Positions 2 through 29,222 of a DNA stretch of 64,000 nucleotides are shown in pieces (the first letter of the stretch is position 1; every line of letters starts with the position of its first letter). This DNA is from a virus. A model generated the notes under the pieces. That model was not told where the DNA came from and did no database searches. It worked only from the letters and a program-made list of their open reading frames with translations. The position numbers and the translations under genes are program-made. The stretch covers positions 37,250 through 101,249 of IMG/VR virus record IMGVR_UViG_3300045988_133728; one strand, 5' to 3'.

Positions 2-2821
2 GATCTTTCTTCTGATGGTGTTACGAGAGCCATACAAGGAGAGATCAGTTCAGTGTTGGATGATACGGTCATTAACGCGATTGCCGGCACAAAAGAAGGC
101 AAGAGGGTTATGAAGGAAATAGAATCTATAAAACAGAATCATCCTGAACTTTATTCTCCTATTAATGAATGGCATGCTTTGGACCCTTATTACAAATGGA
201 GGTCAGATGGTAAAGCAGGATCAAGGTTGGGAGGTCTTCATTATTCTCCTTATGTCGATTATACTAAGGAGATAAATAAGCTGGTCAGTGATTTTAGGAA
301 AAACAACGAAGGCAAGAAGATTCAGACAACAGAATATGATGTTAAAGGTAATCCTACTGGTGGAATCATAGAAGTCAACGTAGATGAGCTTACTGATTCC
401 CAGATAAGGAATTTTGTGTCTGCTAACTTATCTGAAAACATGAGGAATCAGATGAGAATAGAAGCATCATACATGGCAGCTACCAATCCGGTGTTCAGTA
501 ATCCAGATTTGGTTAGTCAATACATTGGGTCTTATGTCGAAAGATACGATAGGCACATAGGAGCATTGGAAGCAAAAAAGAAATCAGTAGGGGATAATAA
601 GGATATTATTGATCGTATTGACAGTCAGATACAGGAAGCTAAAAATCAGAAAGCAGAAGCCAAGAGGGAGGCAGATATGATAATAGCTTCATCAGATCCG
701 GTAGCGGCTGCTAATTTTGTTGTTACCAATAATCTTTTCGATAAGATGACTGATGCATGGAGATACGACAATACAAGTTTTGAAAGGAAGAAAGATGATC
801 TTTATTTTGCAAGGTTGGCAGAGGATAGGGCTCAGCAAAAGTTTTTGACTGATAATGCTAAGTCTATGGTTGAAATATCGTTGGCAAAAGAGCAACTTGC
901 ACAGGCTAAGATTGAAACCGAATACATGCGTACTTACGGTTCCAAGATGGGCACTGAAAGCTCATCCGGAGGCACAAGAGGAGCAGGCGGTGTAGGAGTG
1001 CCGATGGCTCCTATGGACGGGCCTACGGCTATCAATTCTGGAACGGGTAAGATAGGATCTGTTAATTTGGCTAATATCCCTTATGAACAACTCACATCTT
1101 CTTCCACAGAGCGTAGAGCAAATTTATTGAAATTATATAATTCATTATCTCCTACAGACAGAAGTAATATCGTTGCAGCATCATACGAAGAAGAAAAAAC
1201 TGACCCAGGATTGTATGCTAATATGACTCCTGAAGAACGGATATATTCTTATTTAAAAAATAATGGAGGTCAGAAAAACGGATATTTTGGACAAGGAAAT
1301 AACAGATTGTCTGAAGCTTATGATGCTTTACTTCTTTCTGATTCTAAGGCAAATGGAGCTACAAAGGCTATAAATAACATAACTGATTATCAAATAGATA
1401 ATATAGTTACTAAAAAAAATAAGGATATTATCAGTAAAGTTCGTAATGCTAAGTTTATGAAAGGAAATTCTTTTATAAATCTTACCGATACAGATGATAA
1501 GGCTGGAGCCTTCCTGCTCGCCACAGCCATAACAACTGGTGTATCTGATGCCGTAGGGTTCAGAGAATACATGATGGACCCTTCAAGAGGAATAGATATT
1601 CTTAGTGCTATATCTCCGTCATTAGGGGCTAAGGTGAGTGCCGGCAAGTTGGGGAAAAACATATCTGATGCTATTACAAGCGAGAATAATGGTTCCTCTA
1701 CTGGTACATTAGCTCTTATTAATGGAATGAAGAAACTCAACGGCGATCCTGATTTTAATATATCTGATTATATGACCATAGATAAGGATGGTGATATAGA
1801 TTTAAAAGATTATCAGGAAGGTGAACCATTAACTATTACCCAGCTAAGATATGCTGAGAAAAACAGTAGAGTGTCTGATATGATAGCAGGTCAGATGCAG
1901 GATGAGATAAAAATGTCTGTATCTCCTGATCAGATTTCTGATAAGTTATCTCAGTATCATTACCTTGATTCTTACAAAAGATACAATTGGAATGCCGATT
2001 CACCGGAAAAGTCTTTGCAGAAGGCTCAGTTTAGAAGATTGTCTGGTTACATGGCAGGAAAGGTAAATAATCTGGATCCTACTGCTATTAATGCCATTAA
2101 TATGGATGCCGAGATAGATAATGGCACTGTTAGAAGATTCTTGACTGCTCAAGTAGGTTCCGGTGAAAATTCTTATGTTACAGAAAGGGTTGAGATTACG
2201 AATGACGAGCTTCTTAAGGCGGGTATAGATCCTTCGGTCGAGGAGCGTAATTATCCGGTGGATGGTTACAAATCAAGTTTTGGAACCTGTGATTTTGTAG
2301 ATACCGGAAAGAAGGAAGGTTATTCTTATGATAAGTATCTTATACGTAATGGTCTTCCCCGTTTGGCTTCTAAGGCTGATGTTAAGAATGATCTTTATGA
2401 TATAGTAAAGGTTCATGGTTCTTACCTTAAGCCAGAAGAAATGAATGTTGTTAAAACCCTTGTTGATAATTTTATTGACATGTCTGATAATATATCAGTT
2501 CAGTTGGAGGGAATGGACGATAGGGGTTCAAGAGAGGTAGCGGTCAATTTCTATGACAAAAGGACTAAAAATTCTAAAAATCCTGCATTGTTGTTCTCGG
2601 ATTTTGTTCCTTTGGATCCAGGTAATGATGAGTATGCGGATTACTGGAATAGCATTCACCAGAAGTGTCCTCAGTACTTCTTTGTAAAATATGTGAAGGA
2701 GGCTGTTCAAGAACGTCTTGATCAGATGAGGGATCCGTATATGAGAGGAATAAATATCACGCCCAATATGAATGACAAGTTTAGTAAGTTGAACGATTTT
2801 TTGCAGAAAATTTATGGCTGA
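2..2821 (+). CDS. large virion-associated or structural-like protein, 5'-truncated by the window edge (at least 922 aa)
   Basis: The reading frame is open from nt 2 with no stop before the first Met at 53. The protein has K/E/A-rich coiled-coil-like stretches and a Gly-rich patch (GGTRGAGGVGVP). Its stop overlaps the start of the next giant ORF (ATGGCTGA at 2814-2821). Confidence 0.6.
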   Translation, partial: DLSSDGVTRAIQGEISSVLDDTVINAIAGTKEGKRVMKEIESIKQNHPELYSPINEWHALDPYYKWRSDGKAGSRLGGLHYSPYVDYTKEINKLVSDFRKNNEGKKIQTTEYDVKGNPTGGIIEVNVDELTDSQIRNFVSANLSENMRNQMRIEASYMAATNPVFSNPDLVSQYIGSYVERYDRHIGALEAKKKSVGDNKDIIDRIDSQIQEAKNQKAEAKREADMIIASSDPVAAANFVVTNNLFDKMTDAWRYDNTSFERKKDDLYFARLAEDRAQQKFLTDNAKSMVEISLAKEQLAQAKIETEYMRTYGSKMGTESSSGGTRGAGGVGVPMAPMDGPTAINSGTGKIGSVNLANIPYEQLTSSSTERRANLLKLYNSLSPTDRSNIVAASYEEEKTDPGLYANMTPEERIYSYLKNNGGQKNGYFGQGNNRLSEAYDALLLSDSKANGATKAINNITDYQIDNIVTKKNKDIISKVRNAKFMKGNSFINLTDTDDKAGAFLLATAITTGVSDAVGFREYMMDPSRGIDILSAISPSLGAKVSAGKLGKNISDAITSENNGSSTGTLALINGMKKLNGDPDFNISDYMTIDKDGDIDLKDYQEGEPLTITQLRYAEKNSRVSDMIAGQMQDEIKMSVSPDQISDKLSQYHYLDSYKRYNWNADSPEKSLQKAQFRRLSGYMAGKVNNLDPTAINAINMDAEIDNGTVRRFLTAQVGSGENSYVTERVEITNDELLKAGIDPSVEERNYPVDGYKSSFGTCDFVDTGKKEGYSYDKYLIRNGLPRLASKADVKNDLYDIVKVHGSYLKPEEMNVVKTLVDNFIDMSDNISVQLEGMDDRGSREVAVNFYDKRTKNSKNPALLFSDFVPLDPGNDEYADYWNSIHQKCPQYFFVKYVKEAVQERLDQMRDPYMRGINITPNMNDKFSKLNDFLQKIYG

Positions 2822-5800
2822 CAATAATATAGATAGATATAATCCTGCTGCTAAAACCACTTACGAAGATGTGGCAAGGCAAAGGAAATTAGCCGAAGAA
2901 GAGAATTACACTCCGGCTACATTACCAGAGACGACAACACCTCTGGTTCCTAATTATATGCCTGGTGAAGGTGTGTATGCCCAACCTAAATTTCCGGATT
3001 ACGCATCAAGGATAGCTGCTGCCGAATACGAAGAACCGTATATAGCCAAGGAGATAAGCAACAGCTACTCGGAGGCACTGGCTCGTAACAGCTACAGGGG
3101 GGCTACACCTGCCCCGCCGCCTCTTAATCCCTATGGACCGAAGGTAAGTATCCGTGAAAGTCATCAGATGGGTAATGATGGGGTATGGCGTACAAAATAT
3201 CCCAACTATATTCCGGGTATAAACAATGAGGATTATTATGCCAGAAGACAGAGCGGATGGAGTAAGTTTTGGAATGGTGTAGGCAAATTCGCTTTAAAGT
3301 CCGCATTGTACGGTGCGCAAGGAGTTGTGTCATTGCCTGACAAACTTATCAATATGGCATCTGAGGGAAGTTACAAAGCTGCGTTAAACACTAACATGGA
3401 TAAGTTTGTAGGTGATCTTGACCAGCAAATAGACATGCTTCTTCCCCATTATTACAAGAAAGAGGTAGAAGATTATAATTTTGGTCAGAAGCTTTTTAAG
3501 GATACCGGTAATTTCTTGTGGAATGACGTCCTTGGTAATGGTATGTCTTTTACCGTAGGAGCCATGATATCAGCGTACATGACCGGAGGACTTGGAGTTG
3601 GATCATTGGGTAATATAGGCGCTAAATTAGGTGGAAGAATCGGAGCTAAGTTAGCAGCAAGGCAAGCTGCCAATAGGGGCATAGGAAGCCTTAAAAGCGT
3701 GTTTAACGACTATGTAAGAAAAGGAGTTGCTACCGGAAGAAATGTAGGGGAGGCGGCTAAGACCATGACGTTGTTGGCTACCAGTGCCGGATTCGAGTCA
3801 TCGGTTGAAGCAAATTCTTTTATGAAGCAATCTGAGTCTGATTTCAAGGATTATTATCGTAAGATTTATGGTCGTGATCCCAATGCAGAGGAAATGGCTG
3901 TTTTTCGTAATTCTAATGCTGATGTAGGTAGTGCTATATTTGCCGCCAATATGGGTATCATAGGATTATCTAACTGGCTTCTTTTTGGTAAGTATATAGG
4001 GTTAGGAGGCAAGGCTATACCAGGGTTGGAAAAGAGGCTCAACAAGCATTTATTTGGATTAGGGACGGAAGTTGCTAAGCCGGGAGAGATGGCTATTAAA
4101 ATAACCAATCCCAATATAGGACAGAAGATAGCAGGCAATGTTTTCAATATCATGAAAAGACCGGTATCTGAAGGCTTATGGGAAGAAGGATCTCAAGGTG
4201 CTGTTCAGAATACGGCTGAGGAATATGTTAAGTCAAGATATGATAATGTCGCCATGAACGGAGCCGTTGATGTTCTTGATGCTATTTCTGAAGGATTTAA
4301 AAAGCAATATACGTCTAAAGAAGGATGGACTGAAATAGGAATCGGTGCTATTATCGGTTCTTTGTTTGGTATGAGAGAAGGCTTCTTTGGGGTGAAAGAG
4401 TATAGTAATAGTCAGATCTTGCTGGAAAGGCAAGTGAATGAATATAACAAAGCATCTTCTAATCTTAACACGGCGGCTTTGAATACGTTGAAAAAATCAA
4501 TGAGTTTAGGGCCTCAAGTTCGTTCCGATGCCCAGTCTATGACTGGTAAGGAGCTTGATGATGCTATGTTTGAAAAGATGTCTATTGACAACCAAATGGG
4601 AACCTTAGAGGATTCGGCTGAAAATTTCCGGCAGATGATTGATATGATGCCTATTTCGGAAATAGCCGAAGCTAATGGAATGTCTTTAGAAGAGGCAAAG
4701 AAATACAAGGATTCTATTATTGATAATTATAACAATCGTCTTTCGGATTTCAGATCTGCCCAGAGTTTTGCCGAAGATCTTATAGGTGATGACTCTAAGA
4801 TTGAATTTAGAAAATACGTGGCTCGTAATGCCTTCCTTGGTCTTCAATCAGAATCAAGAATGAAAGACATAGCTTCTGTCATAGAAACGCTTTCAGGACA
4901 GCCTCGCGTGGCAGATGCGCTAAGTACGTTCTCCCGGCTGTCGGACAGAGCAAGGGAGCGGGCGATGGCTATCCGTGGCATACGGTCAAGGATAGAAGAA
5001 CTTGAATCCGAAATAGAAGATCTTGCTACCCGCCCTCGTAACGTAGAAGGGAAAGATCCACAAGCTGAATCCATACAACGAAAAACCAAAGAATTGGAAA
5101 GCCTTAGAACCAATTATAATAATTCGTTGTCTGAGTTATCAACGTTAATAGGAAAAGAGTTTTCGATAGAAGAGCTGGTAAGTAAAACCGAATCTGTTTT
5201 ATCTTCTCCTCTTTCTCCCATAAGTTCACAAGATGTGATAGAAGCCTATGATACGCTTGTGGCTTTTGATGATTATTTTAATGTAAAATCAAGACAGGAA
5301 AAGAAGTTTACAGCCAAAGACAAAGCCATGAGATCCTTGGTAAATGAATACCGAAGGAGTTTGATGGACTATAGGAATATGAATAACTTCTTGTCTAAGA
5401 TGCTTGATAAAAGATTCTTAGCTGAGGAAAATAGGGGATTTTCAAAAGCGCTGTCTTCTCTATGGTCTACTCCTTATAAAGGGGATGACAAGGTTCCTGA
5501 TTTTGCAGAGCCTAATAAAGTTGGTGAATATGACACTGATGAGGTAGTAGATCAAGCTGTGTCAGAAGGTAAGATTTCGGAAGACGAAGCTTGGACTATC
5601 AAGGCTTTTATGCATGCTCTTGATAAAGTAAGGGAAGATAGGATGAAGGAAGCAGAAGATGATATAAAAGAGTCACCGCTTACGGAGTCTGTATCGGATG
5701 AAGATTATGAGGCTGCTATGGATAATCCTATTATGGATAATCCTATTATGGTTCCGGCCGTAAGGCAGTCTATAATTGATAAACTATATACAGGTAATGC

Positions 5801-8800
5801 CGATCTTCTTACTGCGAGAGAAAAAGATGTGTATGATAAATACAAACAAGATTTTGATGATTATGTATCGTCTTTGGGTGACAGTCCTGTTAATCTCATA
5901 AAATCATTATCTGAGAAGGCTGATAGGCTTACAAGTCCGAGATCTGTGTATGAGGATAATAAAGCTATTATTGATATGGCTAAATCCAATTTAGAACCAG
6001 ATCAAAGGAAGGAACTTGATGATGCTATTTCTTCGTATGTTGATATAATGAACAGACGGGATAAAGGGGAGAAGGTTGACGAAGATAAGCTTGCCGATTC
6101 TGTATTTACCATAGAAGATCTTGGCCAGGTTGGAAACATCACAGATCTCCTTCCTTATATCGAACAAAACAGGATTATTGATAAAGGTCGTATTTCCGAA
6201 TCTACGTTAAGTAATTTTGGGGAGGATGATACCAATATAGATTCTCTTGTAAATGAGTTAGATGAATCCGATAATACGCCTGGAGCTAACATAGATAGTG
6301 CCCAAAATCCAGAGACGTTGATGGTTAGAAGAATATCCAACGATGGCAACGAAAGGTATGAAATTGCGGGTCTTAGAGCCGATAAATTTATATCTTCTAT
6401 AAAATCATTGGTTCCTATTCAAATAAGCTCTGAAACGAACGCTAATGGCACTAAAAGGTATTCTCTTAACATAGGTGGAGAAACGGCTACTATAATTGAA
6501 CTGCCTTATCATGCGAGATGGTCTATAGACAAAGAATCGGCTCGTGTTCTTAACCGTTACACAGACGTGTCTATTCAGGACGTGGGTAATTCCTATTCTT
6601 TGGTTTATAAGCGTCTTGATTCAGATGAATTGGTTCCGTACAGAACGGGTGTCGGATTCGGAGAGAATGAGGTAGATAAAATAGATCAGGAAGCATTATC
6701 TTCTTTGAAAAAAGGAGATAAGGTTAATCTCGAAATAGATGTAAATGATACTTATAATCAGTCTCTTTTTGCCGAATACAATGATGCTGTTCAGTCCGGC
6801 GATAAAAAAAGAATAGAATCTGCTGAGAATAAACTGGTGTCCAATATGGTTATCAAGGTCATGAGTGGGAACAGATTCGTTTCTGTTGTAAAAGCTGATA
6901 CAGGAGGCATAGATGGTATAAGTAAAATAAGAAGAACGGCTTTTAACAAGTGGAAGAAGGACGCCGGCCGGTCGGCTACCATCGGCGTCGGCACGCATGT
7001 TGTTGCCCAGACCCTTCCCGGAAGACCGGTGTTTAACATGAAGGTGAACGGTCAAGGATATGGCCAGATAGAAAATCTCCCTATTACCGAAAAAGGTGCT
7101 GAAAAAGTATCTGATGTTGGATATGTATTAAATGGCAAAGTCGTGCTTAAGAACGGATCTAAATACACAGGCTTCCCATTTGCTTATTCTATATTAAATG
7201 ACAAGGGGAATAATTACAAAAATGTAAGAGTTCCGGTAGTCGTCATCAAAGGTAAAAACGGTCTTAATTATCTTTTCCCAGTTAGCCTACGTTCTGTAGA
7301 ATCAGAGGAAGGGCAGAAATGGATGTTTTTTATAGATATGCTGCTTGAATCTGGTGATTCTGAATTGCCACAGATGGGTCAAGATGACATACAAGATCTT
7401 AATGCGTATCTAACCAAGTTAGGTCTTGATCCGGCTTCGTATCAAGTATCGTATTTGAATCCTATTTCAGGGCTTAGAAAAGCTCGTGAGGCTATAGAAA
7501 AATTATCTACGGTTCCTGATGTTGTTAAGTGGGTAGAAGATGAAAGCAGGAATGTGAAAGACATTGTGACGTCTGAAGTAGAATCTGGAATAGATTTCGA
7601 AGGTGAGATGTTTGTCGCTCCTAAGATCAGGATTCAGTTTGGCAAATCATCTTCCAGACCTAAATCGCTTATAGAGGATGATCTTCCTTTCTCTGATGAG
7701 GGTAAGACCGTTACTTCTAAGGTAGAAGATGTGGAAGTTTATGAAGAGGAAATGCCAGAGGAAGGGGCTGCCCGGGAGACTCAGCCGGTGCCATTAGCTC
7801 AGCCGGCTCCTGCGGCACAAGCTACGCAGTCTTTACCTGGCAAGAAGCGTACCTCCAGGAAAAACTTCTCTCTTATGTTAAACGAAATAGAATCTCATAT
7901 AGAAAAAGAAGGATTGCCGTCTTATGCTAATATTTTTGATTTTATAGCAAGGAAGATTGTAGGAGGTGATTTGAGGTTTCTTCGTGAGAGAGGTAATCCT
8001 AAAAGCCTTAAGGAAGAAATGGGATTAGAACCTAAAGGAACAGTAGGTGATAAAATATCCACTCCTTCCAGTAAAGGTGGTAAGACCTTAGAAGAATACG
8101 TTTCTTGGCTTCGTTCTCAAACAGATCAGGTGGTGGTTGATTATGTTGGGCCAAGATTTGATGAACAAATTATATCAGAGTTGAAAAACTTTTTGAAATA
8201 TATTAATTTTGTTCCAAGTAAGGCTTTGAATTATTCTCTTAGAGTCAATGGTATGGATACCCTAAAAGAATATGGCACAAAAGAGGAAGTAGAAAAAATG
8301 GAATCTGACATCAATAGTTTGGTTTCTGAAGTTTTGCCTACGGTAGATAATCAAACTGTAGAAGATGTTTCTACTGCAATAGAATCAAATAACTTGCCTG
8401 CCATATGGGAGCCTATGGAAAGCCTTGATATGACAAACGAGGAAAAAATAGAGTTTTTGAATAACGTAGCAGATTTCCTTAGTGGCATTCCAGAGTATGA
8501 TGCTGTTGTGGAGTCTATAGAGTCAGAATCAGATAATATTTTAAATAATGGAAAAGAAGGAAGTGCAGAAGGCGGTGCAGTACGCACTGAGGAAGATGGC
8601 GATAAAAAGGGAGATGGAGAAGGCAAAGGACAATCCAGAACAAATGTCGAAGTTAAAGGAAATGTCGAATTACCTGGATCTCAAGAAGGAAGAGTAGATA
8701 ACTATAGAAAGAACGGAGATAAGTTCTCTGACATTGCTGAAGTTACTTTATGGCTACTTAGAAGGGCTTCCGGCATAACCTCTATTCCGGAAGGAGAAGA

Positions 8801-9473
8801 GGTTTATGTAGAGGGAGATGAGGTTAATAGCATTATGACCGATATGGAATCAAGGTACGGGATAGACACCATCAACCACTCGCATACGACTAAGGCTATA
8901 AGGGATCTTAACGGCGTGTCGGGTTATAAAGTAGAATACGGCTTAACCTTTTTGACATACGATCCTTTTATTAGAATATCCAATCCAAGGAAAGAATCTA
9001 AGGCTGAGAAAGATGAGCTTCGTATATCCGAAGAGCCGCTTACTCACATATCAAGGGTAACAACCCCTTATTTCCTGTACGGCGGTGATGAAGCATATAC
9101 ATCTGTTCCGGCTAAGGTAGAGCCTATACCGGAGAAGATAATGGGTCGTAATGGTATTAAATTGGGTATGAGTGTAACTGAGCTAACCAAATTAGGGTAC
9201 AAAAAAGCTGGTGGAAACTGGATATATAAATCCTATATGAACTCAGGTGTGTATGATTTGTATAATATCAGTACCGGTGAAGCGTTTAGGGCGAAACCGG
9301 ATCTTGGAGTTAAGATAAGCTCCAGCGCATTCATCCGCTCTTTATCTCAATCTGGTAGAAAAATACAAAATATGATGAGCAACATGAGCCAGGAAGAGAT
9401 AGATAGGAATAAGAATCTTGTAGAAGGTTCTGATAATTCGGATTCGATAAATGAGTTAAATAAAGAGTGTTGA
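2814..9473 (+). CDS. giant protein (2219 aa), possibly a virion internal, ejection or tape-measure-like cargo protein
   Basis: A single uninterrupted 6.66 kb ORF. The N-terminal third has Gly-rich amphipathic/hydrophobic segments (GGLGVGSLGNIGAKLGGRIGAKLAARQAANRGIGSL). It has long coiled-coil regions and acidic low-complexity linkers (EDGDKKGDGEGKG). It is translationally coupled to the upstream and downstream genes. No polymerase motif was recognised. Confidence 0.75.
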   Translation: MADNNIDRYNPAAKTTYEDVARQRKLAEEENYTPATLPETTTPLVPNYMPGEGVYAQPKFPDYASRIAAAEYEEPYIAKEISNSYSEALARNSYRGATPAPPPLNPYGPKVSIRESHQMGNDGVWRTKYPNYIPGINNEDYYARRQSGWSKFWNGVGKFALKSALYGAQGVVSLPDKLINMASEGSYKAALNTNMDKFVGDLDQQIDMLLPHYYKKEVEDYNFGQKLFKDTGNFLWNDVLGNGMSFTVGAMISAYMTGGLGVGSLGNIGAKLGGRIGAKLAARQAANRGIGSLKSVFNDYVRKGVATGRNVGEAAKTMTLLATSAGFESSVEANSFMKQSESDFKDYYRKIYGRDPNAEEMAVFRNSNADVGSAIFAANMGIIGLSNWLLFGKYIGLGGKAIPGLEKRLNKHLFGLGTEVAKPGEMAIKITNPNIGQKIAGNVFNIMKRPVSEGLWEEGSQGAVQNTAEEYVKSRYDNVAMNGAVDVLDAISEGFKKQYTSKEGWTEIGIGAIIGSLFGMREGFFGVKEYSNSQILLERQVNEYNKASSNLNTAALNTLKKSMSLGPQVRSDAQSMTGKELDDAMFEKMSIDNQMGTLEDSAENFRQMIDMMPISEIAEANGMSLEEAKKYKDSIIDNYNNRLSDFRSAQSFAEDLIGDDSKIEFRKYVARNAFLGLQSESRMKDIASVIETLSGQPRVADALSTFSRLSDRARERAMAIRGIRSRIEELESEIEDLATRPRNVEGKDPQAESIQRKTKELESLRTNYNNSLSELSTLIGKEFSIEELVSKTESVLSSPLSPISSQDVIEAYDTLVAFDDYFNVKSRQEKKFTAKDKAMRSLVNEYRRSLMDYRNMNNFLSKMLDKRFLAEENRGFSKALSSLWSTPYKGDDKVPDFAEPNKVGEYDTDEVVDQAVSEGKISEDEAWTIKAFMHALDKVREDRMKEAEDDIKESPLTESVSDEDYEAAMDNPIMDNPIMVPAVRQSIIDKLYTGNADLLTAREKDVYDKYKQDFDDYVSSLGDSPVNLIKSLSEKADRLTSPRSVYEDNKAIIDMAKSNLEPDQRKELDDAISSYVDIMNRRDKGEKVDEDKLADSVFTIEDLGQVGNITDLLPYIEQNRIIDKGRISESTLSNFGEDDTNIDSLVNELDESDNTPGANIDSAQNPETLMVRRISNDGNERYEIAGLRADKFISSIKSLVPIQISSETNANGTKRYSLNIGGETATIIELPYHARWSIDKESARVLNRYTDVSIQDVGNSYSLVYKRLDSDELVPYRTGVGFGENEVDKIDQEALSSLKKGDKVNLEIDVNDTYNQSLFAEYNDAVQSGDKKRIESAENKLVSNMVIKVMSGNRFVSVVKADTGGIDGISKIRRTAFNKWKKDAGRSATIGVGTHVVAQTLPGRPVFNMKVNGQGYGQIENLPITEKGAEKVSDVGYVLNGKVVLKNGSKYTGFPFAYSILNDKGNNYKNVRVPVVVIKGKNGLNYLFPVSLRSVESEEGQKWMFFIDMLLESGDSELPQMGQDDIQDLNAYLTKLGLDPASYQVSYLNPISGLRKAREAIEKLSTVPDVVKWVEDESRNVKDIVTSEVESGIDFEGEMFVAPKIRIQFGKSSSRPKSLIEDDLPFSDEGKTVTSKVEDVEVYEEEMPEEGAARETQPVPLAQPAPAAQATQSLPGKKRTSRKNFSLMLNEIESHIEKEGLPSYANIFDFIARKIVGGDLRFLRERGNPKSLKEEMGLEPKGTVGDKISTPSSKGGKTLEEYVSWLRSQTDQVVVDYVGPRFDEQIISELKNFLKYINFVPSKALNYSLRVNGMDTLKEYGTKEEVEKMESDINSLVSEVLPTVDNQTVEDVSTAIESNNLPAIWEPMESLDMTNEEKIEFLNNVADFLSGIPEYDAVVESIESESDNILNNGKEGSAEGGAVRTEEDGDKKGDGEGKGQSRTNVEVKGNVELPGSQEGRVDNYRKNGDKFSDIAEVTLWLLRRASGITSIPEGEEVYVEGDEVNSIMTDMESRYGIDTINHSHTTKAIRDLNGVSGYKVEYGLTFLTYDPFIRISNPRKESKAEKDELRISEEPLTHISRVTTPYFLYGGDEAYTSVPAKVEPIPEKIMGRNGIKLGMSVTELTKLGYKKAGGNWIYKSYMNSGVYDLYNISTGEAFRAKPDLGVKISSSAFIRSLSQSGRKIQNMMSNMSQEEIDRNKNLVEGSDNSDSINELNKEC

Positions 9474-9488
9474 GTATGAGAAGGAGAT
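9411..9488 (+). repeat. junction repeat J, copy 1 (3' end of the giant ORF plus the 5' end of paralog A)
   Basis: About 78 bp, about 94% identical to 10123-10200. Confidence 0.8.
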
Positions 9489-10054
9489 ATGAAGATGTTT
9501 CAGGTCTTGTTCAGTATCAGTTGAAGACCAATCAGCAGGGGAATATAGAGGTTTATGTTGATGACGGGTTTGTTGGAAACGTAAGTGAAGGAGTCTGTAA
9601 TTGGAAGGATGTTGAATACAAGAGTAAGGTTACTATATCTTTGAAAGGAGTCGAGAATAAGGCTAAAACTTCAAGTAAAAGAGTCGGTCCCTATTGTCAC
9701 ATTTATAGCATATTTGGAGGAAATGAATCTTATCATGAAGGTCCGGATAGTAATATAAAAAAGAGTCCGGTTACCACCTTTATAATGTATTGTTATAAAA
9801 ATGGGGATATTACAACTACCACCACTTATACTAAAAATTTATCTGGAACTCTTCATATAGGTAAAACACAATTGACTATCAATTACAAACAAAGTAAAAG
9901 TCAGTCTTTTTCTGGTGGTGATAAAGATTATGTAACATCCGTATCTGATTTCCCTTTTGTTACTGGTCCAGGAGATAATAGCGTTGAGTTTGAAGGAGAG
10001 GGAAGATTAATAGTTGAAACAAAGGCTTCGCATTATGAAATAGAAGTTTCATAA
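9476..10054 (+). CDS. MRRR[FY]-family small protein, paralog A (about 192 aa)
   Basis: The ATG lies 2 nt after the TGA of the giant ORF, consistent with translational coupling. The 5' end ATGAGAAGGAGATAT is shared with three other genes (10188, 28601, 29223). It has a Thr-run (TTTTTYTKN) and is beta-rich. Confidence 0.6.
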   Translation: MRRRYEDVSGLVQYQLKTNQQGNIEVYVDDGFVGNVSEGVCNWKDVEYKSKVTISLKGVENKAKTSSKRVGPYCHIYSIFGGNESYHEGPDSNIKKSPVTTFIMYCYKNGDITTTTTYTKNLSGTLHIGKTQLTINYKQSKSQSFSGGDKDYVTSVSDFPFVTGPGDNSVEFEGEGRLIVETKASHYEIEVS

Positions 10055-10092
10055 TTTCTATTTTTATAGTATTTTGTCTAAAATATTTATCA

Positions 10093-10121
10093 CTATGGGT
10101 GTCAAATGTCAGATAGAAAAA
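10093..10121 (+). repeat. repeat X, copy 1 (orphan copy of the first 27 nt of the 752-aa gene)
   Basis: CTATGGGTGTCAAATGTCAGATAGAAAAA is identical to 10743-10771 apart from one base before the ATG. It reads as the mini-ORF MGVKCQIEK followed by a stop. Confidence 0.8.
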
Positions 10122-10122
10122 T

Positions 10123-10200
10123 AAGAATCTCGTAGAAGGTTCTGATAATTCGGATTCGATAAATAAGTTAAACAAGGAGTGTTGAGTATGAGAAGGAGAT
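10123..10200 (+). repeat. junction repeat J, copy 2 (orphan copy of the giant-ORF 3' end fused to the start of paralog B)
   Basis: It reproduces the last roughly 20 codons of the 2219-aa ORF, including the stop and MRRR start context, although no giant ORF precedes it. Confidence 0.8.
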
Positions 10201-10718
10201 TTTTTAATGCTGCGGATAATTTCGTGGGAGGATGTTATAATAAGTTATCTAATGAGGATATAAAAAGGCTTGGAGGAAAAAGATCTTATGTATGTCAGTT
10301 TAATAAAATTCATATACATATAGGACCTGTATTAAAAGATAATGATTCCGAAGAAAGTTATATAATGTTTAATAGTGATTGGAATCATGGTGGTTATGAA
10401 TCTATAGTTTATCACCATAGTAATAATGGTATTTTTATATTAGGTGAAAATAAAATTGGTAATAGAGAAGATCATATACAGGATCTAACATATTGGTACG
10501 AATATGATCCAAACATTAATGAAAATTATTGTTATTGTTATTATGAAGCTGATAACAGCGGAAATGCTATTAAGTTGAGCCGTGAGTTTGGTGATGTTTG
10601 CACTGTTTTTAATATTCCCAGTTTGAAAGTTACTACTCTTCGTGATGGCGGTTTAAGTTTTCCAGAGATTTATATAGAAGGAGTTTGGGATCCGTTATTG
10701 TATAAGTCGGTTTTATAA
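10188..10718 (+). CDS. MRRR[FY]-family small protein, paralog B (about 176 aa)
   Basis: It starts with MRRRFF. It is preceded by a roughly 78-bp copy (10123-10200, about 94% identical) of the junction sequence at 9411-9488. The body is not similar to paralog A. Confidence 0.6.
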   Translation: MRRRFFNAADNFVGGCYNKLSNEDIKRLGGKRSYVCQFNKIHIHIGPVLKDNDSEESYIMFNSDWNHGGYESIVYHHSNNGIFILGENKIGNREDHIQDLTYWYEYDPNINENYCYCYYEADNSGNAIKLSREFGDVCTVFNIPSLKVTTLRDGGLSFPEIYIEGVWDPLLYKSVL

Positions 10719-10742
10719 TTAACTTTGCAAAAAAGTTAATCA

Positions 10743-10771
10743 TTATGGGTGTCAAATGTCAGATAGAAAAA
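10743..10771 (+). repeat. repeat X, copy 2 (authentic start of the 752-aa gene)
   Basis: See copy 1. Confidence 0.8.
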
Positions 10772-13003
10772 AAGGAAAATGAAATAAAACGGGTTAAGGC
10801 TCCTAACGGGGAGCCTTCCGTTCTTTACGAAAGTGCCTTAAAATTATTAGGAAACAGCGAGCGGGCCCTTCAGGTATGGGCTAAGGCTTACACTCCTGGT
10901 TTTTTGTCGTATTACGGTCATTGGAATAACCCGGCTCCAGGGGAGATGTTTAATACCGATTCCAATGGTGAACCTCTTTTAGAAGACGTGCTGTCGTATA
11001 TGAAGCGTCAAACTTATTTTGCCGATCCTCTAACGGATCAGGATGTTAAGGATGTAAGAGATTTTCTTTTATCTACCTATGGTGTTTATACGGCACCATC
11101 ATTATCCAACATCATTCTTCATTATTTTTATGTAGATGGTAGTTTGATACTGAATGAGCAGAATTTAAGAAGATCAGGCTTGTATAATGAAACAGAGATA
11201 AGTAGAATCTTATCTGATCCTTCTGTTCTTAATGAAGTTTCGACATCCATGAGGGAGTTATTGGATTATTCCAATAACGAACATGATAGGGAAAAAGATA
11301 ATTATTTTATGTCTGTTGACTATCAGTATGGTCCTATTGTTTACAAGGAGGGAGTGTTTAACCAATTTGGTAAAAAAGTACCATATAATCCTTCTGAGCT
11401 TTATTATGCTATGCGTAAAACAGTAGCCGGCATAAAAAAATTTTCTGAATTTTCATCTGCTTTTGAATCGTTGAGAAACTCATATCCTGAACTGGTTGAG
11501 AAATTTGTTTCTGATAAAGAATTTGCCGAATCTATGTTTGATGAGTTTTTATCTACGAATAAGATTCCGGTAATAAACATAGAAGGGGATGATGTGGTAG
11601 AAGGCAAGAGAAGATCCTTGTCTAAGCTACAAGATCTGTCTTATTACAATCCTGGCAAAATAGAGTTCCTAAGAGCTCGTATATCAGCTTATTTAAATAG
11701 GGCTAACGCTGACACCGAATCTGATTTAAGAAGCATGATATGGGATATAGAAGAGGCTTGTACGTGGTTTGGCATAGATATAATAGGGGCGTCAGAAACT
11801 TATGATGGCACAGAAGAATCTTTGAATAAGATAGATAATTTGATGCTGGATCTTGATATTTATGTGGCCAGGCACAATGATGTAAATTATGCTCCTACGT
11901 TGGCATCTTCTATTGATGATGTTCTTGGTGATAGTACAGACTATTATTTTGGATTATTGCCGGAGTATATGGATAATTTGAATATCGTTTATTCTGAATC
12001 AAATATAGACCCAGTAGAAGCATTTGAGAAACATTCATTGCTTAAGGTAGGAGATAATCTATATCAAAGGATCAGCAAAGATGATCTTAACGAGATGTAT
12101 CAAATATCAACAGTGTTAGCCAAGCACAACCTAACTCACTTTCCTGCTAAAATATATCCTGAATCTTGTTTTAAGAACGGCGTTTTGGATAAAGAGAAAG
12201 TACGGAACGTAGATAATAATACGCTCATGGATTCCATTAAAAAATACGTCAGATCGTTCATGGATTCTCAGAACACGGAGGACATGATAATGACCAGGAT
12301 GGCGTTTGGGCACCCGGCGGTACTTGATGTTTCTTACGCGGATGTGGATCGGGAATTTAGTCGGTACATGAACAAAAAACAAGATAGCGAAAACCCATTA
12401 TCCTTATTCGATTTATACCAATATTACCTTGACAACAAACTCCATAAAACAAAATTATATGATAATGCCTATAAGTATCTTGACTTCAAATCTGGTCCAT
12501 CTTTGGGTCTTATTTCTGATGATCCTGATATTTTGAAATCAATAGAATTATCTTTATCTGGAAAAGACAGGTTGATGTTGTTTGATTATAGCATGACCAG
12601 TACCGACCCTTCTTTATCAGAATTGTTTTATTTGGATAGGTATGACCCTTCGTATGCCGGGAATGATTTTGAACACTATTTTTACACCAGGCACCCGTAT
12701 TTGTTAAAAGAAAAATCGGGCCCTAATATCGTAGAGCAAGATGGTGTTATAACAGCCGAAGGTATTTATGATAATTTTATAAGAGTAGGTAATAAGATAT
12801 GGTCTAAAGTAAGCGAGAGTAGTTCCGGCTCTATCTACCAAAATCTGACAGGAACCGAATCGGAGGTGAAATACGATTCTACCCAGAAGGCTAAGACAGT
12901 AGAAACCGATTACGCTCCATACCAAAACAGATCTGGCTTGACGCAAGATATGACCATAAGCAAGTCTGAATTGGATGATCTTAACAAATTAGAATGCAAA
13001 TAA
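10745..13003 (+). CDS. hypothetical protein (752 aa)
   Basis: A long ORF with an ATG start. Its first 27 nt (ATGGGTGTCAAATGTCAGATAGAAAAA) are duplicated at 10095-10121. A hairpin terminator follows it. Confidence 0.65.
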   Translation: MGVKCQIEKKENEIKRVKAPNGEPSVLYESALKLLGNSERALQVWAKAYTPGFLSYYGHWNNPAPGEMFNTDSNGEPLLEDVLSYMKRQTYFADPLTDQDVKDVRDFLLSTYGVYTAPSLSNIILHYFYVDGSLILNEQNLRRSGLYNETEISRILSDPSVLNEVSTSMRELLDYSNNEHDREKDNYFMSVDYQYGPIVYKEGVFNQFGKKVPYNPSELYYAMRKTVAGIKKFSEFSSAFESLRNSYPELVEKFVSDKEFAESMFDEFLSTNKIPVINIEGDDVVEGKRRSLSKLQDLSYYNPGKIEFLRARISAYLNRANADTESDLRSMIWDIEEACTWFGIDIIGASETYDGTEESLNKIDNLMLDLDIYVARHNDVNYAPTLASSIDDVLGDSTDYYFGLLPEYMDNLNIVYSESNIDPVEAFEKHSLLKVGDNLYQRISKDDLNEMYQISTVLAKHNLTHFPAKIYPESCFKNGVLDKEKVRNVDNNTLMDSIKKYVRSFMDSQNTEDMIMTRMAFGHPAVLDVSYADVDREFSRYMNKKQDSENPLSLFDLYQYYLDNKLHKTKLYDNAYKYLDFKSGPSLGLISDDPDILKSIELSLSGKDRLMLFDYSMTSTDPSLSELFYLDRYDPSYAGNDFEHYFYTRHPYLLKEKSGPNIVEQDGVITAEGIYDNFIRVGNKIWSKVSESSSGSIYQNLTGTESEVKYDSTQKAKTVETDYAPYQNRSGLTQDMTISKSELDDLNKLECK

Positions 13004-21939: not shown

Positions 21940-24900
21940 ATGGTATCAACGTGTATTATTAAAAGAGATAATAAAAAGAAAGTTGTTTCTGTCTCTACCA
22001 GATCAGGGGACAGGTCTATGTTGTTTGATAAAATAGCATCTGTTCCTCTTATGGAGAACAGGGAGCGGGCTACTACTGTTTTTAAAACCGTATTTTCCAA
22101 CAAGTTCTTAAAGGCTTTTGGCGACTGGAGAAAGAGAGTGCCTATCAACAAACAGGCTTATAATAAGGTAAAATCCAACATCGATCTTATCCCAGAAGCC
22201 TATAGAGAAAGGGTGCTGGATAAGGCTTCTAAGATGAGTAATCCTGTTCTTGTATCAAAATCAGATGCACCTTATGGGATTCAAGAATCAGGCTTCGGAT
22301 TCTATAGCCAAGATCTGGGTGATAATATTATGTTGGTGGATGCTATGATCCCATCAAGTATTTCCGTACCGGAAGAACCAGGAATAGACGCCGGGCAGTA
22401 TTTACAAGATGCTATATCTTCGGACTTCACTCCCGTATCTATGGTACAGGATAAGGGTGTTAATTATATGGTTATAAAAGACGGTCTTAAGATATTTAGC
22501 CCAGAAGAGCTACCACAGACAGATTCTAATCCTGTGGGTGTAACGTATCAGACCGGAGAGCCTCGTTTGTTTTTCATGAACGATCGTAGTCAATTATTTG
22601 AAGATTACGGAGAAGCTCTTCGCTCTGGCGGGAATGATATCAGAATAGGGTTCTTATCAGGCACCGTTCAAGAATCTACCGTGGATGGCGTGGCAGACAT
22701 TACTTACAAAGCTGGAAAGTATGTTCTTAATAATCCCAAATCTTTTATACCGGTCATGACCGCTTCTGCTTCTACTTCTTTATCAACAAAAGGTGGTATA
22801 ATTAACTACCTTATAAAGAAAGGTCTTTTGTCCGGATCTAAGATATTCGATCCTGAAACAAGAAGCTATTATCTTACAGGAGAAGGTCATACAGGACAAA
22901 TTAGACTTTTCAATTCAGCCTTATCATACACCGAGCTCCGTAATCATTTTGGTTCCGATGTTTCCATGAACGACCAAGGTATGATAACCATAAGCTCGTT
23001 GGATAACAGTAAGGTAACTATGAGACTCGCCACCGGAGGAACGGAAAGGATTAGTAGGAAACAGATAAAGAACGATCTTAAGTCAGGAAGATACAATGAA
23101 TTGGACGCCAAGTACGATCATTTTGATGCGCTTGTAGTTTCATTCATATTAGAAGATAACGATCTTTATGCTGATACTAAAGCTAAGATCGTATCAGATT
23201 ATAGCGGGCAGGAACGTGACCAACGAAATTCTATTGTCGAGATACTGAAAACGCTTGGCGTTAGTGTCATAGGTATGACCGACTATATAGAGAAGTACCA
23301 AACCAAATACGGGCACGAACCTTCTGCTAAGGCATTGGCGGATATTGCTAATAACGTAATAGCAGTTGGTGAAGATGCTACTTTATCTGATTTAGTAGAA
23401 GAAACAGCCCACTTTCTTGTAGAGGCATACAGAGATCAGAATGCTGTTGAGGCTGTTCTGCAAGATGTAGAAGGTACGGAAGAGTGGAACCAGTATGCAG
23501 GTCAGTATTATAATACATACGGTAAAGCGTATGAAGGAGCTGAGCTTGATAATGCTGTTAGGAGAGAAATTCTTGGAAAGATCCTCGCCAGGGAGATGCA
23601 GGCCGGCACAGCACAGGCGCCGGTAGAGCCCACCTCCTTCCTGGGGCGCGTCCGGCAGCTTTTCTCTGGAATCGTAAGCTGGCTTAAATCAGCTTTATCA
23701 ACCCAAAGACAAGATTTGAATAACGTTATTAAAAACATTCGTGATCTTGCCATTACTGACATAGATAAAGGATTTGACACCTCTCTGTTAAAGGATAATG
23801 ACTTTACATTATACTCCCTTTCTTCTATGAACAAGAACAAGTTTCTTGAGTCTAAGATCAGATCACTAAGAAAAACATTAAGAGACTTACGTCAGATAAG
23901 CTCTGATAGGGCTGTAACTACGTCTATGACCCTTGCGCAGCTTAAGACCATAGAAGATAAGATAAATAAGGTAGAGACCGAAATAGACAAGAATGAGATG
24001 GCGGCTGCCATGAACAGCATGATCTCCACAGCCGAAGCTCAGGTCAGATACTTAAGCAATGTGGTGAACACCATCCTTCATGGTGATACCAAAGACGGCA
24101 AGCTTCACTTCAATACCAATGATCGAAAGAACGTAGATATTATCAACAATCAGGTTCTTCCGATCATGAACGATCTTCGAGGATATATCCGTAACAGAAG
24201 TACCGAATTTGATGAACGTGAAAAGCAGGATTATACAAATAGGATCAACACCGTCATTGCCGACATCAATGGTATTCAGTCTGATATTAAATCAGTACAA
24301 GACCTTGATGAAAGTACGTTGCTTGATAAGTTAATGAACGAACTTCATGTGCCGGCAGATAAGGTAAAGAGAGTAAAAGAATTTTTCGACAAGGTTCAAC
24401 ACGATGTTTCTTGGATAAGTAGGTGGTTTGGTATATTAGAGCATTCTTCCAGTCCGTTCAATAACGCTCTTGGAGCTATGATTGCCAAAGACAATTACAA
24501 TGCGATGGTGAATGCCCAGCCCGCCATATCCGATTTCCTGGCATATGCGAAAAAGCATGGTTTTAACAAATCTGAATTTGAAAAACTGCTTCAGAAAGTA
24601 GACGGCAAAACTTCTAATTACCTTCGTAGTGCTCTTGATATGGCTAAATACGATCGTAATAAGAAGCTGGCGCAGATGCGAGCGTTTGCGACCGCCATGA
24701 ACATAGAGATATCAGAAGAAGAAATCAATGATGTGGTTGACAATAACCGTAATTACGTATTTAAAAGAGAAGTAGTTGACAAGGACGGAAATACGGTTAC
24801 TGAGAACGCTAAATTTAAACCGTCGTCCGATAGGGTTAATACCGATATTTTTACTATCGAACAGGAAAAAATCTATACGGAACAGATGGAAAAATGGGAT

Positions 24901-27900: not shown

Positions 27901-28386
27901 GAGAAAACCAATATAAAACGTCTCAGTGTCTATGCCGGCACGTTCCTTATCATGCAAGCCGTATCCATGCTTCTTGCCGGATGGCGTGATGATGATGAAA
28001 ACGAAGAAAGTTGGCTTACTCAATTTGGATCCTATGTCGGATTCAGAACCATAAACGAAATAGCTTCACAGATGCCGTTTATTATGGAGCTTAATGTGGT
28101 AGATATCATTAACGATCCGTTTGTTATGGGGCGGAAGTTGAAGGATCTTACTGATCTTAGGAATTACTCACTTGATAAAGTAACATCCGGCACATACAAA
28201 GGAGAGTCTAAGTTATTTAGGCAACTCGCCAAACAGACGTTTATCAAACAATGGTATAATATCAAGACGCCGGAAGACATAGCGCGCGCCTATAATTGGT
28301 GGCAGCAGACAAACAACAAGTCAATGATGTTCTTCATCGGCGCTACTCCTGATTCGGAAGGGGACGATGACGTTAGTTACAAATAG
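21940..28386 (+). CDS. giant protein (2148 aa), second putative virion cargo or internal protein
   Basis: A 6.4 kb uninterrupted ORF with extensive coiled-coil segments. No DxDGD, Walker or other catalytic motif was recognised by eye. An MRRRF-family gene follows it, as for the first giant ORF. Confidence 0.75.
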   Translation: MVSTCIIKRDNKKKVVSVSTRSGDRSMLFDKIASVPLMENRERATTVFKTVFSNKFLKAFGDWRKRVPINKQAYNKVKSNIDLIPEAYRERVLDKASKMSNPVLVSKSDAPYGIQESGFGFYSQDLGDNIMLVDAMIPSSISVPEEPGIDAGQYLQDAISSDFTPVSMVQDKGVNYMVIKDGLKIFSPEELPQTDSNPVGVTYQTGEPRLFFMNDRSQLFEDYGEALRSGGNDIRIGFLSGTVQESTVDGVADITYKAGKYVLNNPKSFIPVMTASASTSLSTKGGIINYLIKKGLLSGSKIFDPETRSYYLTGEGHTGQIRLFNSALSYTELRNHFGSDVSMNDQGMITISSLDNSKVTMRLATGGTERISRKQIKNDLKSGRYNELDAKYDHFDALVVSFILEDNDLYADTKAKIVSDYSGQERDQRNSIVEILKTLGVSVIGMTDYIEKYQTKYGHEPSAKALADIANNVIAVGEDATLSDLVEETAHFLVEAYRDQNAVEAVLQDVEGTEEWNQYAGQYYNTYGKAYEGAELDNAVRREILGKILAREMQAGTAQAPVEPTSFLGRVRQLFSGIVSWLKSALSTQRQDLNNVIKNIRDLAITDIDKGFDTSLLKDNDFTLYSLSSMNKNKFLESKIRSLRKTLRDLRQISSDRAVTTSMTLAQLKTIEDKINKVETEIDKNEMAAAMNSMISTAEAQVRYLSNVVNTILHGDTKDGKLHFNTNDRKNVDIINNQVLPIMNDLRGYIRNRSTEFDEREKQDYTNRINTVIADINGIQSDIKSVQDLDESTLLDKLMNELHVPADKVKRVKEFFDKVQHDVSWISRWFGILEHSSSPFNNALGAMIAKDNYNAMVNAQPAISDFLAYAKKHGFNKSEFEKLLQKVDGKTSNYLRSALDMAKYDRNKKLAQMRAFATAMNIEISEEEINDVVDNNRNYVFKREVVDKDGNTVTENAKFKPSSDRVNTDIFTIEQEKIYTEQMEKWDAENSELEFSESYATRMESIYKKAEEELGHPVSQTTKEYLNALSRQKRILRQPFIDSNGNFDEVAYYKSSNYEEEGLLRKQRKEAASEYIYVGTRRVEKTGDQLKMAKEIQAINEVWRKESNNATNAVSESFLQKLRTIQNESGGEAALKTLMLGGHLSFNDRFWNDIESEQSARTESNNKASYLKMAQDIISSTTSDRDATDVDSIVKDIEKNKAIIKEIISNNRDVADIGEINEATFTSSERDAFRAASEAIEADYAILIDYAKMVGLEDIDKYLTKSSKAENEVNQSYLNALADSKEVEWKFVQRHTTAKKAKRIQALRDKLFKAADNRYLFTVSETNYLSEKLGISKELDGRDFRNAVNTKMASLFLNNTREEGIEADIKAGIEEANAIVNEFARSQVFSYYKRMAPTGYTAMIGKIGRGEIDVAQMVKDVQNGTSTQDYGMDISYLSFDPARAWVAESEAENSGRNPDYVKDHGYGHRMPKKSLYRDESYFNDFGIKYDADGNEVATKNVEQWNMIQKLKEIKRQSLSLYKEQSPNLYAIPQISKQDIERVEGLGISLKSTVRNFVSDLCLDRVDDSLYGKTRQGEVYDPEDRVRSIPKYYIYELENQDDVSHDFGYSYSMLMMQSSLYNEKQKSIELAQGLGQMLLNKQFEGGKKAEATQAYQMFRDFFNDHYYGIRMNTKKLTVNIGGYTVDLTRIMMAVERFMSVMNLALSPFVAATGALTGHINLIMESAVGQYISKDSLKYASAEFSRLAPSCIAETGDIDRKSKLYVIGERMGIFNIRNRMYGAGYNRVARTLMRSPMYAFMEILNYPLDPQVMIATMDNVRYYKGRFYTFQDFKMEKERNKEQSTIKREWNALKDHTLWSMVDVVDGKVVVKPRSGVTVEEVETQMAITRNQVRSLSQICNGSLNEENRTAASRNWIARFMTAHRGWLVLAAQRLWKRRGFNFQTMQEEEGLSITLKNMIAKTFSLASESGMKNIIDAWNENKDNMNEVEKTNIKRLSVYAGTFLIMQAVSMLLAGWRDDDENEESWLTQFGSYVGFRTINEIASQMPFIMELNVVDIINDPFVMGRKLKDLTDLRNYSLDKVTSGTYKGESKLFRQLAKQTFIKQWYNIKTPEDIARAYNWWQQTNNKSMMFFIGATPDSEGDDDVSYK

Positions 28387-29218: not shown

Positions 29219-29222
29219 AATT

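Follow-up and report, generated by a model that had tools for sequence, protein, structure and literature searches.

No viruses are more abundant in the human gut than the crAss-like phages, and very few of their accessory genes have an assigned role. The DNA analysed here is a stretch of 64,000 nucleotides from IMG/VR record IMGVR_UViG_3300045988_133728 (the window), which comes from an epsilon crAss-like phage of the human gut close to phage crAssE-Sib. The subject is a slot of 1.4 kb in which two small genes, A and B, stand in tandem between a giant gene for a protein of 2219 amino acids (aa) and a gene for a protein of 752 aa. Comparison with relatives showed that this slot is a polymorphic accessory-gene site between two conserved genes of the virion block, that A and B are alternative alleles, and that the window genome belongs to a minority lineage carrying both.

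All genes of the slot lie on one strand, and two sequences are repeated directly across it (Table 1). The left-hand repeat, termed J, spans 81 nt, of which 77 (95%) are identical in the two copies found by the repeat search; the mismatches between J and the second copy, J', are 9419 T/C, 9453 G/A, 9461 T/C and 9464 A/G. J is composed of the final 21 codons and the TGA stop of the giant open reading frame (ORF), a spacer of 2 nt and the initial 13 nt of the small gene, ATGAGAAGGAGAT, which are four codons for MRRR plus one base. A and B are thus each fused to the same four-codon MRRR leader and start 2 nt past a giant-gene stop. The right-hand repeat, X, reads ATCA[C/T]TATGGGTGTCAAATGTCAGATAGAAAAA and is identical at 32 of 33 nt; the starting 27 nt of the 752-aa gene are present in it as exact copies at 10095-10121 and 10745-10771. 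The cores of J and X occur in two copies each in the window, while 100 dinucleotide shuffles gave 0 matches to either. No inverted repeat, attC-like ones included, was detected in J or X by the repeat search, and in genomes with a single cassette J and X are the ends of the two conserved flanking genes.

Between the orphan copy of X and J' lies a chimeric joint, 10121/10122, which reads ...CAGATAGAAAAA/TAAGAATCTC..., and the orphan X creates a mini-ORF of 9 codons at 10095-10124 (MGVKCQIEK, then a stop). A frameshift or hop linking this mini-ORF to the J' frame (+1 at AAA-TAA-G) was considered and rejected, the product being only ~29 aa long and no slippery motif being present. A preliminary description of this DNA had placed J at 9411-9488 and 10123-10200 with ~94% identity, which was essentially right, and had noticed that the 27-nt start of the 752-aa gene recurs after A. 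It gave the layout as J-A-X-J'-B-X-ORF752, with which the repeats and the ORF coordinates agree, and it reported the chimeric joint, which exists but belongs at 10121/10122 and not at 10121/10123.

Table 1. Features of the slot, its flanking genes and the second array (site 2) of the window.
Feature	Position	Strand	Evidence or remark
Giant virion structural gene, 2219 aa	2814..9473	+	ORF list, PHROG 32390 match, crAssE-Sib orthologue; 3' end is the left conserved flank
J	9408..9488	+	Direct repeat, 81 nt, 95% identical
Cassette gene A, 192 aa	9476..10054	+	ORFan family, conserved N-terminal domain
A-type intergenic spacer	10055..10094	+	Same spacer 3' of A in A-only genomes
Orphan X copy, 27 nt of the 752-aa gene and 6 nt upstream	10089..10121	+	Mini-ORF 10095-10124
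J', orphan giant-gene 3' end and B leader; no upstream giant ORF	10120..10200	+	
X/J' joint, type 1, ~2 nt (AA) microhomology	10121..10122	.	Native contexts 9400-9412 and 10765-10777
Cassette gene B, 176 aa	10188..10718	+	ORFan unrelated to A beyond MRRR
B-type intergenic spacer, AT-rich 12-nt inverted repeat	10715..10743	+	Same spacer in B-only genomes
X, resident copy at the true 752-aa gene start	10739..10771	+	Repeat search
752-aa gene, right conserved flank	10745..13003	+	ORF list, IMG/VR relatives
First site-2 gene, 205 aa	28601-29218		MRRRF head
Second site-2 gene, interrupted by G8 tract 29286-29293	starts 29223		Array extent 28601-29958

The state of the slot was assigned in 80 IMG/VR contigs, kept from 262, that carry a 752-aa gene 94-99% identical, using the positions of J and X, ORF clustering and cassette-specific probes. 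B alone was found at 38 of these loci and A alone at 18; the A-B order with the window's joint was present at four and the B-A order, with a shorter joint, at six. A TnpB element accompanied B at nine loci and A at two, a TnpB remnant accompanied B at one, and a single slot (L064) was empty. Arrays of more than two cassettes were not seen among the genomes examined. The slot of crAssE-Sib is J-A-X-ORF752 only, its small gene being 97% identical to A. The preliminary description had predicted that the number or kind of cassettes would vary at this junction, and A-only, B-only, A-B, B-A, empty and insertion sequence-disrupted states were all encountered. In the empty allele, which is present in three contigs, 27 nt separate the giant-gene stop from the ATG of the 752-aa gene. 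At the empty slot of L064 (3940-4060), and also in L097-L099, the arms are locally far more divergent than the remaining flanks, with mismatches at 5 of 33 positions of the J core and 3 of 27 of X. This allele looks like an old haplotype that may have been recombined into a modern backbone.

The cassette type was then compared with the flanking sequence. Among A-only and B-only genomes, r2 between cassette type and every flanking single-nucleotide polymorphism (SNP) was at most 0.18 over 1.3 kb upstream and 2.2 kb downstream, and this low association held even tens of bases from the cassette. On neighbour-joining trees of the flanks (77-78 genomes) the cassette state required a minimum of 19-24 Fitch changes, as against ~28 for shuffled labels. 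Genomes with identical flanks of 700 nt or 1000 nt were found to carry different cassettes, J haplotypes of 64 nt were common to A-preceding and B-preceding genomes, and the transitions from ~97% identity to no similarity fell exactly at gene edges. Allele exchange onto differing flank backgrounds is frequent, and the r2 values of at most 0.18 together with at least 19 changes on the trees point to homologous recombination in the conserved flanks. The simplest cause would be ordinary homologous recombination, during co-infection, in the kilobases of conserved flank; recombination at a high rate needs no special site or nuclease. Recombination-driven cassette exchange had been proposed in the preliminary description, with a fixed, invariant old duplication as the outcome that would speak against it. 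The relatives proved highly polymorphic, and the near independence of cassette state from flank phylogeny rules such a fixed old duplication out.

Some further mosaic features were observed around the cassettes. Within the giant ORF, SNPs are linked in dense blocks at ~7760-9000 (400-1650 nt upstream of J). They make up two haplotypes in a ratio of ~75:25, which are unlinked to cassette type and indicate further mosaic segments within the giant gene. The intergenic spacers travel with their cassettes. The AT-rich 12-nt hairpin of the B type contains TAACTTTG, and A-type spacers of relatives contain TATCTTTG or TACCTTTG. L009 and L018 have a hybrid B/A spacer whose crossover lies at CTTTG. In the A-type spacer of relatives, ~18 nt before the ATG of the 752-aa gene, stands TAnnTTTG, which fits the -7 promoter box of Bacteroides and may be one.

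Purifying selection acts on A and B, which are real genes: pN/pS among intact alleles is 0.26 for A and 0.22 for B. Their bodies are unrelated, as the preliminary description had it: nothing beyond MRRR was found in common by BLASTP, and nothing beyond 4-7 residues by profile-profile comparison. The GC content is 0.345 for A and 0.297 for B, with 0.37-0.40 in the flanks; AT-richness is usual for acquired accessory genes. Both are lineage-restricted ORFans, for which a word-indexed search of 5.8 billion proteins returned only relatives of more than 60% identity, and neither had a match in Pfam or PHROGs or a credible match in the PDB by sequence and profile searches. AlphaFold2 models from the A and B alignments were unusable (mean pLDDT 33 and 34); a deeper alignment that takes in distant A-family members might do better. 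Those distant members, obtained by exhaustive profile search, are 24-36% identical and 170-225 aa long, and most start MRRR. The A family has a conserved N-terminal domain, to which B is not alignable, and very variable C-terminal parts. Matches of the A profile to beta-propeller and WD40 proteins were judged spurious, being due to beta-rich repeats.

A and B are also dispensable, because an empty allele exists and homopolymer frameshifts are frequent. In relatives, B is knocked out at a T6 tract right after the leader (10200-10205) and at an A5 tract (10262-10266), and the within-gene indels of B-only loci are confined to these two tracts; A is knocked out at an A6 tract (9757-9762), where a change from A6 to A7 shifts the frame in L006 and L066. 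Judged by ORF length, truncation affects 13 of the 58 copies of B and 3 of the 34 copies of A, and in one relative A is split by a TnpB element. Forms of the cassette proteins of 117 aa and 107 aa are abundant in the protein database, where truncated, internally deleted and B/A-chimeric forms are common. A chimera of B(1-62) and A(140-192) was recorded there together with many variants of both A and B that have in-frame internal deletions (P0022, P0016, P0051, P0007-P0013, P0036-P0040). The deletion variants are mostly single-member clusters from Logan assemblies and may be either real array deletions or assembly shortcuts.

The origin of the tandem was studied through its joints. In ~270 related contigs from IMG/VR and an ENA/JGI metagenome collection, only two types of joint between X and non-X sequence were found. 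Type 1, that of the window, is X followed by the full 81-nt J' and was present in 11 further contigs (eight from IMG/VR and three ENA/JGI metagenome contigs, from several independent datasets), always in A-B order. In type 2, ...GATAGAAAAA/TTCGATAAATGAG..., X is followed by a truncated J; the order is B-A in 10 contigs and A-B in one. Compared with its native contexts, the type-1 joint has ~2 nt (AA) of microhomology and would, by its sequence, be an illegitimate, non-homologous join. The J' haplotype was found only in A-B arrays; it is absent from the J copies that precede A, and its nearest counterparts, at a distance of 1 nt, are the J copies with which true giant genes end in B-only genomes. 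Three of the four differences between J' and J are synonymous in the giant-gene frame, an excess that is non-significant alone (~0.1 by chance) and was weighed only with the haplotype evidence. A private haplotype nearest to the J copies of B-only genomes argues that J'-B came from another genome and that the neighbouring J was not copied.

In the proposed course of events, the left partner would be an A-type genome in which a break or switch occurred after the initial 27 nt of the 752-aa gene; the right partner would be a B-type genome entered 63 nt before the giant-gene stop. An unequal, illegitimate crossover would have joined the two at ~2 nt of microhomology, duplicating X (33 nt) and J (81 nt) as it did so. 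J and X would then be repeated in the window because of one non-homologous join, which makes J' and the orphan X by-products and not dedicated recombination sites. From such a tandem, recombination between J and J' would delete A, recombination between the two X copies would delete B, and a J'-B-X circle, once excised, could insert again on either side of the cassette in a genome that has only one. Overall, two non-homologous alleles that circulate by homologous recombination appear to have been caught here as a tandem from one illegitimate join, a reading to which we give a probability of roughly three in four. The mechanism is mainstream phage mosaicism, and the case a fairly ordinary one of phage gene-cassette exchange.

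Several points weigh against this reading. X ends at the same base in both joint types, and the breakpoint in the J of type 2, GGA/TTCGAT, is also found in an independent tandem duplication of 31 nt; a purely random illegitimate event predicts neither. The single A-B contig with a type-2 joint has a coverage of 4.9x and could be chimeric. Finally, the searches assigned no function to A or B, so that their functional reading draws on context and analogy. The shared breakpoints can be read economically if type 2 derives from type 1 by loss of 33 nt (TAAGAATCTCGTAGAAGGTTCTGATAATTCGGA) and ordinary exchange later altered the gene order; alternatively, there may be a break hotspot. The 31-nt duplication lies in the J of L101 (ERZ773224 NODE-558, reverse strand ~4370-4430, equivalent to window 9443-9470), where TTCGATAAATGAGTTAAATAAAGAGTGT is present twice and the end of the giant protein is altered to ...ECFDK followed by a stop.

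The slot is also a hotspot for TnpB insertion: in 12 of the 80 relatives it contains such an element or what remains of one. Three different elements were recognized, with the Pfam domains OrfB_IS605 and Cas12f1-like_TNB zinc ribbon. An IS605-type element of 1.4 kb encoding a 410-aa TnpB is inserted at ...TATG^GGTGTC..., just after the ATG of the 752-aa gene, in eight of the 80 relatives (L009, L014, L018, L020, L026, L060, L069 and L073, at ~2600-4004, equivalent to window 10747/10748), and its right end (...CATAACATG) restores that ATG. A TATR left flank is common to four independent insertion sites of this element. Insertion took place beside a short conserved motif and without target duplication, as in IS200/IS605-type elements. 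In L079 only the two ends of the element remain. Two other TnpB elements, which are unrelated and lie on the minus strand (390 aa and 420 aa), were observed in L024 (2716-3985), L056 and L022 (2687-3949), the insertion points being the A stop codon, the inside of A and the inside of B. The TnpB elements of the slot also occur elsewhere in the genomes of their carriers.

With eight such insertions and one further remnant at the start of the 752-aa gene, it is conceivable, if unlikely, that TnpB triggered the rearrangement. A nuclease guided to the start of X would cut TnpB-free genomes ~20 nt into X in mixed infections, the break would be mis-repaired into the X/J' joint, and exchange at the slot would be stimulated. 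The TATR flank at the four sites resembles a transposon-associated motif (TAM), and since the right end of the element restores the ATG, the adjacent guide would match GGTGTCAAATGTCAGA..., giving a candidate target of TATG-GGTGTCAAATG... (TATG-GGTGTCAAATGTCAGATAG) at the slot. X ends 22-24 nt past this TAM in both joint types, which is close to where nucleases of the TnpB/Cas12 type reportedly cut. In addition, the non-array B allele nearest to the window's B (99.6%) is in a TnpB-carrying genome. However, the J of the closest genome with B and TnpB differs from J', a tblastn search of the 64-kb window with the three element types returned nothing, and Rfam gave no match, and no omega-RNA family, in the locus or in a TnpB-bearing relative. 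An expected cut at 15-21 nt fits only loosely, the common X breakpoint is also explained if type 2 arose from type 1 through a deletion of 33 nt, and the high rate of recombination calls for no nuclease.

The type-2 joint accompanies the B-A order in 10 contigs and the A-B order in one, as insertion of a circle via either arm would give, and breakpoints recur both in X and in J. These observations would suit a dedicated mobile-cassette system in which J'-gene-X circles are excised and re-inserted in the manner of an integron, or of the encapsidated mini-circles formed by ORFans of T4-type phages that are flanked by promoter-early stem-loops (PeSLs; PMC2839356), with the arms as functional sites. 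Such a system is quite unlikely here, given that no integrase or recombinase domain was found in the neighbouring ORFs scanned (922-aa, 2219-aa, A, B and 752-aa), and none in the crAssE-Sib annotation of the region. J and X also lack an attC-like inverted repeat, and the arms show no enrichment of promoter or terminator modules. Moreover, each of the only two joint types in ~270 contigs resembles a single, clonally inherited historical event, no array exceeds two cassettes, and the lone A-B contig of type 2 is of low coverage.

It is very unlikely that the tandem is an old duplication, that is, that A and B are paralogues whose bodies diverged while selection or gene conversion kept the arms. 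The two genes do have a similar size, the same MRRR leader and the same position relative to the arms, and the A family does combine a conserved N-terminal domain with highly variable C-terminal parts. Against this, similarity between A and B is undetectable past 4-7 residues even between profiles, B does not align with the A-family N-terminal domain, and similarity falls abruptly from 95-100% to none at both edges. Single-cassette genomes predominate, and an empty allele and both gene orders exist; J' resembles B-only genomes and not the neighbouring J; and the GC contents of A and B differ (0.345 vs 0.297). An assembly artefact, in which a mixed population of A-type and B-type genomes was mis-joined, has a negligible probability. 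The source is metagenomic, de Bruijn assemblers can be misled by repeats of 33-81 nt, and a mis-join of this kind may be present in one related contig of low coverage. However, the joint sequence AGATAGAAAAATAAGAATCTC is in neither single form, the parents have no shared k-mer long enough to bridge them, and exactly this joint is found in 11 further contigs drawn from several independent datasets; the absence of joint k-mers from the single-cassette forms together with this recurrence excludes an assembly chimera.

The leader itself is not confined to the slot. The motif ATGAGAAGRAGATWT had four matches in the window against 0.12 expected, at A, at B, at 28601 and at 29223, the last two belonging to MRRRF genes directly behind a second giant gene (21940-28386, 2148 aa) that matches a PHROG of virion structural proteins. 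The Arg codons of the leader vary between AGA, AGG and CGA, and these differing codons indicate that the leader is conserved at the protein level. The genes of this second array (site 2) had no match in Pfam or PHROGs. The one at 29223, termed C2, has the N-terminal domain of the A family over ~45 aa (hhalign probability 89%). At the same position crAssE-Sib has a different body after the common MRRRFEN leader, and both forms occur among the 80 relatives (~53 and 27); the alternative gene, carried by crAssE-Sib and 27 other relatives, is unrelated and encodes 149 aa after MRRRFEN. In the contig of a distant A-family member, unrelated small neighbour genes also start MRRRF or MRRRY. As genes headed by MRRR[FY] stand behind the second giant gene and occur in two forms among relatives, the slot is one of two leader-tagged polymorphic arrays.

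The G tract of C2 ranged from G5 to G10 in 41 near-identical relatives; with G5, G7 or G10 the 245-aa site-2 ORF was almost always intact, whereas copies with G6 or G8, and those with G9 save a single exception, had a truncated ORF. The gene resembles a phase-variable contingency gene, with sequencing error in poly-G also possible. In a distant phage (L108; Logan SRR25477578, 1556-2259), an MRRRFFEN-headed gene, apparently split by a frameshift, encodes a Laminin_G_3 (concanavalin-like lectin) domain and was the sole leader-tagged gene with a recognisable domain of carbohydrate-binding type.

Virion cargo proteins are the products of the equivalent block in PhicrAss001, which follows the muzzle gene, and crassvirus groups differ in their set of cargo proteins (PMC10172136). 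By analogy, A and B may be part of a larger group of small genes that have an MRRR[FY] head and stand directly behind giant virion or cargo genes, for which the leader would serve both as a docking or packaging signal and as left-hand homology, the proteins being interchangeable host-interaction accessories such as ejected anti-defence or receptor-related factors; we put this forward tentatively. A more far-reaching and rather doubtful version is that MRRR[FY] could be a protein-level address tag, with which interchangeable proteins would be packaged or docked with the giant proteins and delivered at infection, as a crassvirus counterpart of the internal-protein anti-defence arsenal of T4. Diversity would in this case arise from cassette swapping at the leader, tandem stacking and on/off switching at homopolymers (the poly-G at site 2), and TnpB cleavage at the right edge might accelerate turnover.

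crAssE-Sib (OR575929; 151 kb; human gut) was the one GenBank phage that matched the region, at 88% identity. Its annotation includes ring, muzzle and tail-lysozyme genes, a diversity-generating retroelement and two TnpB genes, and makes the giant 2219-aa gene the last of three large structural-protein genes 3' of the muzzle gene. A label of virion RNA polymerase for the 2219-aa ORF was not adopted because a regular expression of the D.D.D / D.DGD type found no match. The 752-aa gene had no match in Pfam or PHROGs. The J core was absent from 185,579 species genomes scanned and thus gave no clue to a host or prophage. crAssE-Sib is described in PMC11054128, in the available passages of which the slot is not described.

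Among known systems, the slot departs from integrons in that J and X have no attC-type palindrome and no integrase was found in the adjacent ORFs (Pfam) or in the crAssE-Sib annotation of the region, and from shufflons (Gin/Cin/Min) in that its repeats are direct and no invertase domain was found in the adjacent ORFs (Pfam). With respect to contact-dependent inhibition (CDI)/Rhs toxin/immunity loci, each unit has a single ORF and neither a toxin nor an immunity domain was detected. The preliminary description had drawn an analogy to toxin/immunity or tail-fibre-tip cassettes, which is partly contradicted by the one ORF per unit and by the lack of a toxin domain. J' does contain a 63-nt 3' fragment of the giant gene, as an orphan unit would, but in the giant protein a single residue (E to K) is the most that recombination between J and J' would alter. 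Receptor-binding genes of Campylobacter phages contain hypermutable poly-G tracts, and here, too, homopolymer length appears to switch small virion-associated genes on and off among near-identical genomes (G5-G10 at site 2; A6, T6 and A5 in A and B); given the shortness of the A and B tracts, they probably mutate at a modest rate.

In classical phage mosaicism (the Hendrix/Hatfull model and the boundary sequences of lambdoid phages), non-homologous replacement takes place at gene boundaries and recombination in the flanks. Sharp transitions at gene edges, AT-richer, moron-like inserts and linkage equilibrium with the flanks are common to that model and to the slot. Tandem, heterozygote-like intermediates are rarely caught, whereas here one has been preserved and spread with its junction scar. 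The locus is thus a clean population-level example of the exchange, stacking and switching-off of accessory genes in which the recombination scar has been kept. Since mosaic exchange at conserved gene boundaries is well known, its value lies in the specific candidates and the unusually complete intermediates and not in a new principle. What is added are these complete intermediates, the TnpB insertion hotspot and the MRRR-leader genes as candidates for crassvirus host-interaction proteins, with the leader-tagged set (A, B and the genes at 28601-29958) as candidate host-range or counter-defence factors.

PeSL shuffling in the hyperplastic regions of T4-type phages (PMC2839356) likewise inserts, deletes and replaces ORFans at short repeated boundaries, and in both cases the flanking direct repeats could excise an ORFan as a circle. 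As in that system, indels and replacements between close relatives of the window phage are bounded by repeats. The PeSL is a non-coding promoter plus terminator stem-loop found genome-wide, whereas J and X are coding ends that are each duplicated once; a promoter and terminator scan of 9000-11200 returned five promoter-like sites against 9.8 expected, none of them in the arms.

The closest documented parallel would be the internal-protein (ip) hotspot of T-even phages (Ip1, Ip2, Ip3 and their numerous alternatives), a likeness put forward with no claim of membership. There, the leader directs packaging and is removed by the prohead protease, and the protein is injected. A and B have no sequence similarity to the T4 internal proteins or their leader in PHROG, Pfam and PDB searches; the host is presumably a member of the Bacteroidota and the phage a crassvirus with a different cargo system; and A and the site-2 gene C2 share an additional N-terminal domain of ~45 aa. 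PMC12373910 and PMC3012670 describe the injected anti-restriction internal proteins of T-even phages as unrelated and as having only the N-terminal packaging leader in common. At the ip loci as at the slot, unrelated, small, dispensable proteins have a common short N-terminal leader and are encoded at polymorphic hotspots among virion genes, with contents that differ between relatives.

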